This document shows, piece by piece, positions 45,986 through 48,556 of a stretch of DNA of 64,000 nt. Within the stretch, counting starts at the first letter, position 1; each line of letters begins with the position of its first letter. The DNA is from a bacterium. GTDB lineage: Bacteria > Cyanobacteriota > Vampirovibrionia > Obscuribacterales > Obscuribacteraceae. Below the pieces are notes generated by a model that was given only the letters and a program-made list of their open reading frames with translations, made no database searches and was not told the origin of the DNA. The stretch lies in NCBI GenBank assembly GCA_018062085.1, contig JAGOSY010000024.1, positions 13,421-77,420 of the forward strand, given 5' to 3'. Made by a program: the position numbers and the translations under genes.

Positions 45986-47410
45986 ATGAGCACAGTACTA
46001 GAGAAGACCCAGGGTCAGGTCGTACAGGTGATTGGACCTGTGGTGGACGTCGAATTTCCTGGCGGACATCTACCTGAAATCTATAACGCCATCGTTATTG
46101 AGGGCGTCAATCCAGCCGGAGAACATTTGAAGGTTGTCTGCGAAGTGCAACTTTTGCTCGGCGATAACCGCGTCAGAAGCGTATCGATGAGTTCCACAGA
46201 CGGCATGACCAGAGGCATGGTTGTTACCGATACCGGTAAACCAATCTCAGTGCCAGTAGGCAAAGCTACTCTTGGTCGTATTATCAACGTTCTTGGTGAA
46301 GTGGTAGACGAAGGCCCCGAACTAAAAGCAGACGACCACTGGGGCATCCACAGACCATGCCCAGATCTAACTGATTTGCAGACCGACACTGTTGTTTTCG
46401 AAACCGGTATCAAAGTTGTCGACCTACTAGCTCCATATGTAAAAGGCGGCAAGATTGGTCTATTCGGTGGAGCCGGCGTAGGCAAGACCGTTATCATCAT
46501 GGAACTAATCAACAACATCGCTCAGCACCACGGCGGCTACTCAGTATTCGGCGGCGTTGGCGAACGTACCCGTGAAGGTAATGACCTCTGGCATGAAATG
46601 AAAGACTCGGGCGTTATCGACCGCGTTGCTCTAGTGTACGGTCAAATGAACGAGCCACCAGGCGCCAGAATGCGCGTTGCTCTTTCAGCTCTAACTGTGG
46701 CTGAATATTTCCGTGACGTGTCTAAGCAAGACGTATTGCTCTTCGTCGACAATATGTTCCGCTTCACCCAAGCCGGTTCTGAAGTATCAGCTCTACTTGG
46801 CCGTATGCCATCAGCTGTAGGCTACCAGCCAACTCTGGCATCAGAAATGGGCCAATTGCAAGAACGTATTACCTCGACCAAGAACGGTTCGATTACATCA
46901 GTACAAGCTGTATACGTGCCGGCCGATGACTTGACTGACCCAGCTCCTGCGACAACATTTGCCCACCTAGATGCCACCACAGTGCTGTCACGTCAAATTG
47001 CAGAACTAGGAATCTACCCAGCAGTTGATCCACTTGCTTCTACCTCAACAGCTCTTAAACCAGAAGTTGTAGGACAAGAGCACTATGATATCGCTCGTGG
47101 TGTGCAACAAACTCTGCAACGCTACAAAGACTTGCAAGATATCATCGCCATTCTAGGTATGGATGAACTTTCAGCCGACGACAAACAAGCCGTTACTCGC
47201 GCTAGAAAAATTCAGAAATTCATGAGCCAACCGTTCACAGTTGCTGAAAACTTCACAGGCCGTAAAGGTAGTTACGTCAAGCTAAAAGATACCGTCGAAG
47301 GCTTCCGCCAGATTCTTGAAGGCGAAGTTGACGATCTTCCAGAAGGCGCTTTCTATATGGTTGGCAGCATTGATGAAGTGAAAGAACAAGCTAAGACAAT
47401 GCAAGGCTAA
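45986..47410 (+). CDS. atpD: F1 ATP synthase beta subunit
   Basis: [12 protein letters not shown] (Walker A), [10 protein letters not shown], and [30 protein letters not shown]. Confidence 0.97.
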
Positions 47411-47421
47411 TCGCTAACTAA

Positions 47422-48102
47422 ATGAAAAAAAAGCACAATCAGGAAGCGGTAGCAGAAACTAAACCGTTAAAACCAGGCGCAGAAAAAGAACACGACCAAG
47501 GTCAAGTTCCAGCGTCTACGGCACGCAACATTTTTGTCTTCGGACGACTCGAAAACGAAATAGCACTGCCAACGATTAAAAAGCTGCTGCGCTTTAATGA
47601 GCGCGATCCCAAAAAACCAATCAACATGTATATCAACTCTGCTGGTGGAAACGGATACAACGCTGATGGCATCATTGCCGTTATGCATTGTATCGAAGCA
47701 CCAGTGAATACGATTTGTTTAGGGCACGCGCTCTCTGGTGCTTGCGAAATTCTGGCCTCTGGAACAGGAGAGCGGTCAGCTTACGAGTTTTCCACTCTCA
47801 TGTTCCACCAGACTTTGTGGGAAGCCGAAGGTGATATCACTAATTTAGAAATTCAAGCCAGCCAAGGTCGACGCTTCCGCGAAGCTCAAATAGAGCTTCT
47901 GCACCGCTGCTCAGGCCAAGACAAGGCGCGAATTGCCAAAGACATCGAACGCGATCATTATCTATCAACCAAAGAAGCTCTTGAATATGGCTTGATTGAT
48001 AAGATCCTTCCGCACAGTGGCCATACCCACGGCGCAGGCCAAAAGACACTAAGCAGTAAAGCGTTAAGCAAGAAACCAGCAACAAAAAAGACGCCTAAAT
48101 AA
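47422..48102 (+). CDS. ClpP-family (MEROPS S14-like) serine protease paralog
   Basis: Aligns by eye to the E. coli ClpP core: INMYINSAGG, ICLGHALSGA (Ser), LMFHQT (His), IERDHYLSTKEALEYGLIDKIL (Asp). The N- and C-termini are non-canonical and Lys-rich. Confidence 0.8.
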   Translation: MKKKHNQEAVAETKPLKPGAEKEHDQGQVPASTARNIFVFGRLENEIALPTIKKLLRFNERDPKKPINMYINSAGGNGYNADGIIAVMHCIEAPVNTICLGHALSGACEILASGTGERSAYEFSTLMFHQTLWEAEGDITNLEIQASQGRRFREAQIELLHRCSGQDKARIAKDIERDHYLSTKEALEYGLIDKILPHSGHTHGAGQKTLSSKALSKKPATKKTPK

Positions 48103-48130
48103 GCGACCTAACTTAGAGAGAAATATAGAA

Positions 48131-48556
48131 ATGGCTACACTGAATCTCAAGATCATCACACCAGAAAGAGTTGTTTTCGACAGTCCTGTTGAACAGGTAA
48201 CGGCTGTGGCCAATGACGGTGAATTGACGATTCTTCCTGGTCACGAGCCGATCGTCACCACTCTGGCAATTGACGTACTGCGCTTCAAAATTAAGGGCGA
48301 AGAAGAAACAGCTGCTGTAATTGGCGGCATCATGAACGTCAACAATTCAGAAGTTGAAATTCTCTCTGATATGGCAGAACTCGACATCGAAATCGACGAA
48401 GCCCGCGCCAACCAAGCTAAAGCTAGGCACGAAGCAGAGAAGAGTCAGAAGACAGACAAGCTCGAGTCTTACCTCACCGAAATGGCACTATCGCGCGCCA
48501 TGGTTCGTCTGAAAGCGGCTGAAATGGCCAAGATCAGAAAAATGGGACGGCGCTAG
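48131..48556 (+). CDS. atpC: F1 ATP synthase epsilon subunit
   Basis: LKIITPERVVFDSPVEQVTAVANDGELTILPGHEPIVT is a typical epsilon beta-sandwich N-terminus. The C-terminal helices carry ARANQAKARHEAE. Confidence 0.9.
   Translation: MATLNLKIITPERVVFDSPVEQVTAVANDGELTILPGHEPIVTTLAIDVLRFKIKGEEETAAVIGGIMNVNNSEVEILSDMAELDIEIDEARANQAKARHEAEKSQKTDKLESYLTEMALSRAMVRLKAAEMAKIRKMGRR

Follow-up and report, generated by a model that had tools for sequence, protein, structure and literature searches.

In most cyanobacteria, F1 beta and epsilon are encoded together in a separate transcription unit (atpB–atpE, 'atp2'; PMC11124002). A functional precedent for a protease acting on such subunits comes from Chlamydomonas, where attenuation of the chloroplast ClpP stabilised unassembled ATP-synthase subunits (PMC6681370): there, in an organelle descended from cyanobacteria, a ClpP-type protease controls the fate of CF1 subunits that have not been assembled. 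Unlike the protein described below, this plastid Clp protease is general, essential and unfoldase-dependent, and it has no genetic linkage to atpB or atpE. To our knowledge, no operon for an F-type ATP synthase in bacteria has been described as containing a protease gene, and the disposal of surplus or unassembled F1 subunits in bacteria is poorly understood. Canonical clpP is usually arranged as tig–clpP–clpX, whereas the clpP-like gene described here sits inside the atpD–atpC operon of Obscuribacterales (Melainabacteria/Vampirovibrionia), which are non-photosynthetic relatives of cyanobacteria. As in the cyanobacterial and plastid beta:epsilon operons, atpD and atpC of Obscuribacterales lie apart from the other atp genes. 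However, the beta and epsilon genes are adjacent in the described operons, and we found a protease gene between them in every Obscuribacterales locus examined. A literature search found no published description of the atpD, clpP-like, atpC arrangement.

The locus was analysed within a window of 64,000 nucleotides, that is, the whole stretch of DNA under study (Table 1). The initial annotation had placed the end of atpD at 47410, an open reading frame at 47422-48102 and the start of atpC at 48131, all on the plus strand and separated by 11 and 28 nt, and every one of these positions proved exact. The atpD product scored 828 bits on TIGR01039 (cut-off 462.85) and the atpC product 105 bits on TIGR01216 (cut-off 67.25). 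In AtpC the N-terminal beta-sandwich was present along with the C-terminal helical domain, and the protein was ordinary in length and domain content. Because minus-strand genes lie on both sides, the trio is a self-contained three-gene unit. No atpA paralogue was found in the 64-kb window, indicating that here, too, atpD and atpC stand separate from the remaining atp genes; a separate beta:epsilon operon is the cyanobacterial arrangement and fits the organism being a member of Obscuribacterales. A tblastn search of the window for a second ClpP matched the clpP-like gene only, and Pfam annotation of the other large ORFs revealed no ClpX, ClpA or ClpC. The same annotation located an FtsH gene at 60101-62089. 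No phage genes were found near the trio, the neighbours being housekeeping genes.

Table 1. Features of the atpD, clpP-like, atpC locus, with positions counted from the first letter of the window.
Feature	Position	Strand	Description and basis
TrkA-type K+ channel gene	44723-45730	-	Flanks the trio on the atpD side
Divergent intergenic region upstream of atpD	45731-45985	+	Probable location of the operon promoter; sequence and alignment with relatives
atpD	45986-47410	+	F1 beta subunit, 474 aa; TIGR01039 and Pfam ATP-synt_ab
atpD to clpP-like spacer	47411-47421	+	11 nt, TCGCTAACTAA; without Shine-Dalgarno sequence or hairpin
clpP-like ORF	47422-48102	+	226 aa, 681 bp; Pfam PF00574
N-terminal extension	47422-47523	+	Residues 1-34; stands in for gating loop and helix A, as aligned to E. 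coli ClpP
ClpP-fold catalytic core	47524-48015	+	Residues 35-198; PF00574, AlphaFold2, Foldseek
Catalytic codon Ser105	47734-47736	+	Alignment with E. coli ClpP
Catalytic codon His129	47806-47808	+	Alignment with E. coli ClpP
Catalytic codon Asp178	47953-47955	+	Alignment with E. coli ClpP
Polybasic disordered C-terminal tail	48016-48102	+	Residues 199-226 and stop codon; pLDDT <50
clpP-like to atpC spacer	48103-48130	+	28 nt; weak purine-rich ribosome-binding region GAGAGA
atpC	48131-48556	+	F1 epsilon subunit, 141 aa; TIGR01216, Pfam PF02823 and PF00401
NAGPA-family gene	48572-49531	-	Flanks the trio on the atpC side, convergent
Stem-loop	48596-48620	+	11-bp stem, 3-nt loop; 40 nt past the atpC stop; RNA fold

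When relatives were compared, the insertion first noticed in this one window turned out to be conserved throughout. The order atpD, clpP-like, atpC on the same strand was present in all 35 Obscuribacterales species genomes with a homologue of at least 57% identity. The atp context was likewise found for 73 of 73 clade members on JGI metagenome contigs (both neighbours in 62, one neighbour and a contig end in 10, and an overlapping alignment call in 1), and a CLP_protease gene lay between atpD and atpC in 3/3 loci reached from AtpC proteins. No clade member outside the atp context was found in these 35 + 73 + 3 loci. More than 100 independent contigs and genomes contained the locus, some of the contigs being 3.2 to 7.0 Mb long, and the identical protein in the identical arrangement was recovered from eight contigs of independent assemblies, which rules out an assembly artefact or an oddity of a single assembly. 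Outside the trio, which stayed intact, the flanks were reshuffled: TrkA was adjacent in 26 of 32 assessable loci, and NAGPA in 8 of 26. For every pair of loci AtpD identity was 71% or more, and the phylogenetic span of one order limits the force of any inference from gene neighbourhood. A search for AtpC homologues returned only Obscuribacterales proteins, at identities of at least 63%. The fixed position is also weak evidence of a functional tie, because the operon itself shields an internal gene from rearrangement.

The substitution pattern was then compared among the genes of the trio. The dN/dS of the clpP-like gene was 0.015-0.12, against 0.009-0.17 for atpC, indicating from the alignments that the gene is under strong purifying selection. 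Mean pairwise identity was 77% for the ClpP-like core, 83% for AtpD and 61% for AtpC. These dN/dS values, together with the presence of the gene in every family member examined, contradict the neutral insertion that the initial annotation had offered as an alternative. The GC content of the gene (0.467, against 0.473 for the window) represents a native base composition and, with the arrangement kept across the order, led us to reject a recent horizontal insertion. We consider it highly probable that the clpP-like gene is a conserved, selected member of the operon.

We examined the spacers for signals of transcription and translation. Across 36 loci the gap between atpD and the clpP-like gene varied from -4 to 73 nt around a median of 11 nt, and stop and start codons overlapped in 10 of the 36, nine by 1 nt (TAATG or TGATG) and one, locus L037, by 4 nt. 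In relatives the gap between the clpP-like gene and atpC was from -11 to 99 nt long (median 18 nt), often with GGAG within it. In agreement with the initial annotation, which had seen no hairpin or terminator in the gaps, a pattern scan detected nothing resembling a terminator on the plus strand of either, and its sole match lay on the minus strand at 48105-48092. Promoter-like matches numbered five, which is not above shuffled sequence (3.2 +/- 1.5), and no independent promoter or terminator for the clpP-like gene was visible in the sequence. Co-transcription, earlier judged probable, is the simplest reading of the short or overlapping gaps in 36 loci, the absence of a plus-strand terminator and the lack of intergenic room for an atpC promoter, and from the sequence we strongly infer that atpD, the clpP-like gene and atpC lie on a single mRNA. 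The clpP-like gene would most likely be transcribed from the atpD promoter. Upstream of atpD there was a TTGACA box (45895-45900) that is conserved in the closest relatives (alignment with loci L007-L012), three tandem 10-nt units containing CTTTCAG (45940-45969) and the atpD Shine-Dalgarno sequence GGAG (45977-45980); neither the sequence of this region nor the L007-L012 alignment showed a convincing -10 element of the sigma-70 type. At the other end, the stem-loop past atpC is contained in the 3'-terminal part of the NAGPA gene, which is convergent, has no U-tract and is not statistically distinctive (z-score only -1.68 over a 116-nt stretch); it is a possible transcript end of the operon. 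The overlapping stop and start codons suggest that translation of the clpP-like gene is coupled to that of atpD, and in many species, where these codons overlap or lie a few nucleotides apart, coupling to the end of atpD translation would be probable. Given a shared mRNA and such coupling, synthesis of the ClpP-like protein would track that of F1 beta and epsilon.

The product of the inserted gene is a member of the ClpP family (Pfam PF00574/MEROPS S14) by profile, fold and triad, bearing out the earlier assignment by eye; the ClpP motifs quoted then were present and aligned to the catalytic Ser, His and Asp. The PF00574 CLP_protease profile matched with 136 bits (E 1.7e-39; gathering score 20.2), residues 33-197 aligning to positions 15-180 of 182. 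Ser105, His129 and Asp178 aligned to Ser97, His122 and Asp171 of E. coli ClpP. The triad and the inter-ring sensor Glu176-Arg177 were invariant in 36/36 loci and 44/44 aligned proteins, as were the oxyanion Gly and the Glu-Arg-Asp motif. The AlphaFold2 monomer had a pLDDT >90 over most of the core and low confidence in the handle strand (residues 131-141). In a Foldseek search of the PDB all 50 matches listed were ClpP, mostly with an rmsd of 1.7-2.2 Å and a target TM-score of 0.77-0.90, and the top matches covered about 165 columns at 35-38% identity with an rmsd of about 1.8 Å (1.7-2.0 Å). The fold is shared with canonical bacterial ClpP (E. coli, Coxiella burnetii 3q7h, H. pylori 2zl0, B. 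subtilis 3ktg; MEROPS S14), as are the triad, the oxyanion Gly, the handle and the Glu/Asp-Arg inter-ring sensor. The conserved handle and the Glu176-Arg177-Asp178 sensor would be compatible with two stacked heptameric rings.

As judged from the alignments, the ClpP-like protein differs from standard ClpP in having no N-terminal gate and a degenerate unfoldase-docking pocket, and it fell below every NCBIfam ClpP cut-off (118 bits against 308.6 for TIGR00493; 135.6 against 228 for NF009205, the best model). The gating loop and helix A are missing: the canonical PxVxE...GER..DIYSRLL segment is absent and 15-50 variable, charged residues stand in its place. ATG 47422 is the sole in-frame start before the core, and the extension that it opens consists of a conserved MKKK start (K3 and K4 are conserved in at least 90% of sequences) and a variable, charged, disordered linker (pLDDT <50 for residues 5-32). 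The docking pocket was assessed at the 12 hydrophobic residues of E. coli ClpP listed in bioRxiv 10.1101/820209, and half of these positions were polar, charged or absent. F49 was replaced by K/R and Y60 by N/D in 36/36 loci each, A52 by D/E/Q/K, F82 mostly by S/Q and F112 mostly by S, and L23 was absent; L48, Y62, I90, M92 (as L), L114 (as Y) and L189 (as I/L) were still hydrophobic. Two further departures from canonical ClpP are the deletion of one residue directly after the catalytic Ser, in the alignment with the E. coli protein, and the polybasic disordered tail. Across the clade this tail has 12-74 residues (median 39.5), about 30% Lys+Arg and a net charge of median +10 and minimum +4. 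In known ClpP structures the C terminus is on the apical face. The N-terminal loop and the docking pocket are the two elements that mediate chaperone binding in ClpP (PMC4416901), and the ClpP-like protein is probably uncoupled from direct AAA+ docking. For Clp research it appears to be a natural experiment, in which catalysis and ring contacts are kept, gate and pocket are discarded and a polycationic tail is added; whether it forms an open barrel, pairs with a canonical ring or binds something by its tail bears on the extent to which a ClpP scaffold can take on new uses.

The best overall explanation, whose prospects we rate as evenly balanced, is a conserved operon that encodes a gate-less, unfoldase-independent ClpP paralogue with unassembled F1 subunits as its favoured target. 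A ClpP paralogue would have become fixed inside the cyanobacterial-type beta:epsilon operon of Obscuribacterales, where purifying selection has kept it. It has retained what a proteolytic barrel needs, namely the fold, Ser105-His129-Asp178, the handle and the Glu-Arg sensor, and may assemble into such a barrel. Both AAA+ coupling elements, the gating loop with helix A and the pocket for the IGF/IGL loop, have been lost, and the polybasic disordered tail gained. The protein would most likely act as a gate-less peptidase without an unfoldase of its own, and its substrates would be unfolded or unassembled polypeptides. Speculatively, the favoured target could be F1 subunits that are translated from the same mRNA and are in surplus or left unassembled. 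The beta subunit is acidic, with a net charge of -19, and the basic tails could conceivably capture it. By analogy with the chloroplast protease, a role in ATP-synthase quality control is plausible, although we consider a role directed at ATP synthase less likely than not. A still more specific version, in which a dedicated unfoldase-free protease serves as an ATP synthase accessory whose apical tails capture acidic F1 subunits and whose activity removes them or trims epsilon, seems doubtful; trimming of epsilon would tune the inhibition of ATP hydrolysis. Fixed between atpD and atpC across an order, the protease gene is a concrete candidate for F1-subunit disposal. If the more specific version is true, no earlier case would exist of a bacterial F-type ATP synthase with a protease encoded in its operon, and the protein would be a naturally 'gate-less' ClpP.

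The peptidase might instead be under selection for a task that has nothing to do with ATP synthase, such as the general turnover of peptides or proteins. It would then be kept in place since rearrangement breaks an essential operon, with the strong housekeeping promoter as a secondary benefit. This is a serious possibility, though on balance we lean against it. Purifying selection shows that the protein matters and is silent on its substrate, and the perfect conservation of the operon interior alone, with variable flanks, is what such trapping predicts. The ClpP paralogues characterised so far are, according to two reviews (PMC9035409, PMC4416901), general-purpose proteases, which also fits; beta and epsilon, moreover, show no apparent adaptation to a protease, epsilon being ordinary. 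However, duplication followed by relocation was never observed among the loci surveyed, where no clade member stood away from atp. A protein in which both unfoldase-coupling elements are lost would also be expected to have a specialised role and not a general ATP-dependent one, and the 10 loci with stop/start overlap suggest that expression is tightly integrated with atpD.

Another alternative concerns the access of substrates, and is compatible with a role either directed at ATP synthase or unrelated to it. The ClpP-like heptamer might stack on a canonical ClpP ring, which alone would dock ClpX or ClpC, in parallel with M. tuberculosis ClpP1P2 and P. aeruginosa ClpP1–ClpP2. The non-docking isoforms (M. 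tuberculosis ClpP1, P. aeruginosa ClpP2, Listeria ClpP1) are likewise catalytic paralogues unlikely to bind ClpX/ClpC. The inter-ring elements, an intact and invariant handle and Glu-Arg-Asp sensor, are retained in the ClpP-like protein and make a mixed tetradecamer conceivable. Known non-docking isoforms still keep the N-terminal loop, whereas here it is wholly replaced, and the operon context and the basic tail are unmatched among them. Loss of the docking pocket and the N-terminal loop, which mediate chaperone binding (PMC4416901), would be tolerable for a ring that never meets an unfoldase, and asymmetric ClpP1P2 complexes are well documented (PMC9035409; PMC12451819). Against a mixed complex, no canonical clpP, clpX or clpC was found in the 64-kb window or in 47 Obscuribacterales loci, which cover a small part of each genome. 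We regard such a complex as unlikely.

It is very improbable that the protein is a catalytically inert scaffold that keeps the ClpP fold for a structural or regulatory role in the manner of ClpR. ClpR of cyanobacteria and plastids is also a lineage-specific ClpP paralogue in the Cyanobacteriota/Melainabacteria group, but it is defined by loss of the triad, which the ClpP-like protein keeps invariantly. The divergence of the protein, as seen in the NCBIfam scores, would suit an inert scaffold, and the deletion right after the catalytic Ser could disturb the oxyanion hole. Nevertheless, the three triad residues and the oxyanion Gly have stayed unchanged over a long divergence, which is not expected if catalysis is dispensable, and an inactive ClpR-like paralogue was rejected on this ground. 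A neutral or recent insertion, an assembly chimera or the remnant of a phage head-maturation protease can be set aside with near certainty: phage ClpP-like prohead proteases do resemble it in having a ClpP-like core that lacks an N-terminal gating loop, and PHROGs head maturation protease families were matched (best 76.6 bits), but phage models reached only 59-77 bits against 136 for cellular ClpP, with 59 bits on NF045542 (cut-off 120), and the more than 100 independent contigs or genomes, dN/dS of at most 0.12, native composition and lack of phage genes nearby all argue against these origins.

The clade to which the protein belongs is isolated. Among 1.84 billion representatives searched, scores fell from 290 bits inside the clade to 138 bits for the next match, with no intermediate relatives that show the origin of the paralogue. 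The most similar outsider with shared traits, P0245 (41% identity, without helix A, long tail), is a singleton that adjoins gatB, outside any atp context. A second candidate, L168, had matched the clade motifs in the metagenome scan and proved to be an ordinary ClpP with a normal N terminus. The atpD, clpP-like, atpC trio provides a clean synteny marker for Obscuribacterales contigs, and with its help four bins under different taxonomic labels have already been flagged.

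We found that atpD (F1 beta) and atpC (F1 epsilon) are separated by a gene for a 226-aa ClpP-like protein, and on recheck the coordinates, strands and gaps that the initial annotation had assigned to the three genes (the trio) were all exact. The identities it had given were also upheld: atpD and atpC scored above the cut-offs of their TIGR models, and the inserted ORF is a member of the ClpP family by Pfam profile, fold and catalytic triad. The trio is bracketed by minus-strand genes and is thus a self-contained unit. No atpA-like paralogue was found within the 64-kb window, so the remaining atp genes are located elsewhere. 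Most cyanobacteria have split atp genes with a separate beta:epsilon operon (PMC11124002); the split arrangement in the window is of the same type, except that the beta:epsilon operon is interrupted by the clpP-like gene. The window also carries a tilS-ftsH pair on the minus strand (60101-63961), a cluster of three Ser/Thr protein kinase genes (16582-24048) and a gene whose 671-aa product includes a peptidase domain of the clostripain-like (C11) type (33591-35606). No Clp ATPase gene was found across its 64 kb.

Genes of the trio and its immediate flanks (window coordinates)
Gene	Position	Strand	Evidence or relation
atpD	45986-47410	+	TIGR01039, 828 bits (cut-off 462.85)
clpP-like ORF, 226 aa	47422-48102	+	Pfam CLP_protease, 136 bits, E 1.7e-39 (gathering score 20.2)
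atpC	48131-48556	+	TIGR01216, 105 bits (cut-off 67.25)
TrkA-type K+ channel gene	44723-45730	-	upstream flank of the trio
NAGPA-family gene	48572-49531	-	downstream flank of the trio

The arrangement was then followed in other genomes. An identical ClpP-like protein occurred in the same arrangement on 8 contigs from independent assemblies, and a scan of one genome per species revealed homologues at 57-95% identity in 35 genomes. These were labelled mostly Obscuribacterales, Obscuribacteraceae, Ca. Obscuribacter, Melainabacteria or Cyanobacteria/Cyanobacteriota, with a few labelled merely uncultured bacterium and four bins under other taxonomic labels; beyond them, matches fell to ≤44% identity and were ordinary ClpPs from many phyla without atp neighbours. 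Gene order and strand were kept in 35/35 genomes. All 73 clade members (the clade being the Obscuribacterales ClpP-like proteins encoded between atpD and atpC) in JGI metagenome contigs lay in the atpD/atpC context, 62 with both neighbours, 10 with one neighbour and a contig end, and 1 with an overlapping alignment call. When look-ups were started from AtpC (63-74% identity), so that loci were picked independently of ClpP presence, a CLP_protease gene lay between atpD and atpC in 3/3, one of them on a 7.0-Mb contig. TrkA adjoined the trio upstream in 26 of 32 assessable loci and NAGPA downstream in just 8 of 26; the reshuffled flanks indicate that rearrangement had time to occur while the trio stayed intact throughout. 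The arrangement is fixed in the Obscuribacterales group.

Several observations concern individual loci. The order gyrA, lysS, a gene for a 158-168-aa protein of unknown function, DUF1292 and TrkA-type channel (39418-45730 in the window), with atpD next, is shared between the window and loci L087-L090, from Ca. Obscuribacter genomes, at an AtpC identity of just 74%. In L087-L089 (Ca. Obscuribacter sp.), some 3 kb downstream of atpC, Peptidase_C14 (metacaspase-like) genes occur as a tandem set of three (13282-18007), two of which also match the CHAT domain weakly. Contigs L020, L026, L030 and L040, from bins labelled Chloroflexota, Bryobacterales, Drouetiella and Proteobacteria, carry the Obscuribacterales-type trio with an AtpD 81-84% identical to that of the window, and are probably mis-binned or mislabelled. 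On a 3.4-Mb contig (L091, 5347-5969) the clpP-like gene is broken into two ORFs, one of 52 and one of 127 aa; on L092, a short-read contig whose AtpC is identical, the gene is intact and encodes 207 aa (2187-2810). The split probably reflects an indel in the assembly and not a pseudogene. In the epsilon subunits encoded by the atpC genes of L015, L018 and L024, the last beta-hairpin of the N-terminal domain is enlarged by an insertion (about 20-30 aa) that the other 29 aligned sequences do not have.

Pairwise dN/dS was 0.015-0.12 for the clpP-like gene, in the same range as for atpC (0.009-0.17). Across 36 loci, mean pairwise identity was 77% for the ClpP-like core (residues 35-198), 83% for AtpD and 61% for AtpC, and the GC content of the gene (0.467) was native to the window (0.473). 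The alternative of a neutral insertion, raised in the initial annotation, was excluded by this purifying selection, by core conservation lying between that of AtpD and AtpC, and by native base composition. On these comparisons the gene is old in the Obscuribacterales lineage and clearly functional.

A sequence search against solved structures returned only ClpPs, the best being Coxiella burnetii 3q7h (E 4e-29), with alignments beginning at residue 35. The AlphaFold2 model, built from 44 clade sequences, had pLDDT >90 across most of residues 35-200, and Foldseek superposed it on ClpP structures with an rmsd of ~1.8 Å over 165 columns. Ser105, His129 and Asp178, which align with E. coli Ser97, His122 and Asp171, do not vary across the clade. 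The oxyanion Gly is likewise invariant, and so is the Glu-Arg pair ahead of the catalytic Asp, the inter-ring sensor; the handle region is gap-free against E. coli ClpP. Checked against PDB 3mt6, the E. coli sequence used in the alignment showed one mismatch, which leaves the numbering unchanged.

By contrast with canonical ClpP, the ClpP-like protein lacks three tested features, namely an equivalog-level score, the N-terminal gate and the docking pocket. The canonical N terminus (gating loop and helix A, PxVxE...GER..DIYSRLL) had no counterpart in the clade, whose proteins instead open with a conserved MKKK followed by 15-50 aa of variable, charged linker, disordered in the model. In E. coli ClpP, the pocket into which the IGF/IGL loops dock is lined by 12 hydrophobic residues (bioRxiv 10.1101/820209). 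In the clade, six of these have a polar or charged counterpart or none: K or R replaces F49 and N or D replaces Y60 in 36/36 loci, A52 gives way to D, E, Q or K, F82 mostly to S or Q and F112 mostly to S, and L23 has no equivalent. PMC4416901 and PMC9035409 describe the N-terminal loop, along with a hydrophobic patch on the surface, as the two elements mediating chaperone binding and pore gating. We also found a single-residue deletion directly after the catalytic Ser and a disordered, Lys/Arg/Ser/Ala-rich C-terminal tail of 12-74 aa (median 39.5; median net charge +10). The protein scored below every NCBIfam ClpP cut-off, in accordance with the lost or changed N terminus, pocket, Ser-adjacent residue and tail. 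The protein retains its catalytic and ring-ring residues, has neither of the two elements for coupling to an unfoldase and has acquired a polybasic tail.

In a representative library of 1.84 billion proteins (50% identity clusters), the clade comprised one full-length representative (290 bits, 73% identity) and fragments, and the next match dropped to 138 bits and 41% identity. The best PDB relatives came from unrelated phyla with similar scores. The outsider most like the clade was P0245, a 320-aa ClpP without helix A and with a long low-complexity tail; it is a singleton encoded beside gatB, away from atp genes (L093, 6797-7759). A second unusual ClpP relative, likewise from another organism, is P0243, with 470 aa and two tandem ClpP domains. 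A phage prohead protease was rejected since phage models scored far lower, and ClpR was ruled out because the catalytic triad is present. The closest functional resemblance was to the non-docking isoforms of mixed ClpP complexes, from which the clade differs in having no N-terminal loop at all, its own tail and its own genomic setting.

Expression signals were examined around the trio. The gap separating atpD and the clpP-like gene was 11 nt in the window and a median of 11 nt in 36 loci (range -4 to 73), with stop/start overlaps in 10 loci, nine by 1 nt (TAATG or TGATG) and one by 4 nt; that separating the clpP-like gene and atpC was 28 nt in the window (median 18 nt in the 36 loci, range -11 to 99). 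A pattern scan detected no plus-strand terminator-like site in or near either gap, agreeing with the initial annotation, and promoter-like matches did not exceed the frequency seen after shuffling the sequence. With short or overlapping gaps and no such terminator, the proposed co-transcription of the three genes still holds as an inference, the simplest reading being a single transcript that begins upstream of atpD. A good ribosome-binding site, GGAG, precedes the atpD ATG by 5 nt in the window; none was found in the 11-nt spacer before the clpP-like gene, which opens with ATG AAA AAA AAG. In many species translation of the protease is probably coupled to termination of atpD translation, and on the simplest reading atpC would have a purine-rich site of its own for translation. 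Just 5' of the atpD ribosome-binding site, the 10-nt unit (A/C)CTTTCAG(T/C)A occurs three times in tandem (45940-45969), with 2-3 copies in the closest relatives too (L007-L011). The array could belong to the operon's leader or play a part in its regulation. A 21-nt block, AACGAAAACTATCATAAACGA (about 45814-45834), situated between the divergent genes trkA and atpD, is kept even in L012, a locus whose ClpP-like protein is just 75% identical and whose sequence around the block is unconserved. An 11-bp stem-loop (48596-48620), 40 nt past the atpC stop and inside the convergent NAGPA gene, where its coding sequence reaches its 3' end, may mark the operon 3' end; it has no U-tract and is not statistically distinctive (z -1.68).

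Full-text literature searches found no paper that describes the clade, or an atp operon containing a protease gene, and we therefore regard the protein as an apparently new ClpP subtype, of putative function, in an apparently new, order-wide operon context. As part of the beta:epsilon operon it is conserved and under selection. The arrangement is unusual, its conservation is robust and heterologous expression offers a way of testing it; its importance would come from a link to ATP-synthase biogenesis or regulation, if that inference is true. The protein would be expected to assemble into a barrel and to be unable by itself to dock ClpX, ClpA or ClpC. Substrates could reach it in either of two ways: as a gate-less peptidase it may act on unfolded or unassembled chains, or it may join a putative canonical ClpP in a mixed complex and form its far ring, as in M. 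tuberculosis ClpP1P2 and P. aeruginosa ClpP1-ClpP2. We tentatively favour a role in removing or trimming those F1 subunits translated from the same mRNA that are in surplus or unassembled. The main rival, a trapped passenger, is a serious possibility short of probable; here a useful protease with unrelated substrates would be held in place since an essential operon cannot be rearranged, and conservation of position by itself cannot tell this from a role on F1 subunits. As regards F1-subunit removal, in the chloroplast of Chlamydomonas a ClpP-type protease is known to control ATP-synthase subunits that are not assembled (PMC6681370). AtpD is strongly acidic (net charge -19, pI 4.95), and the tails of the ClpP-like proteins are strongly basic.
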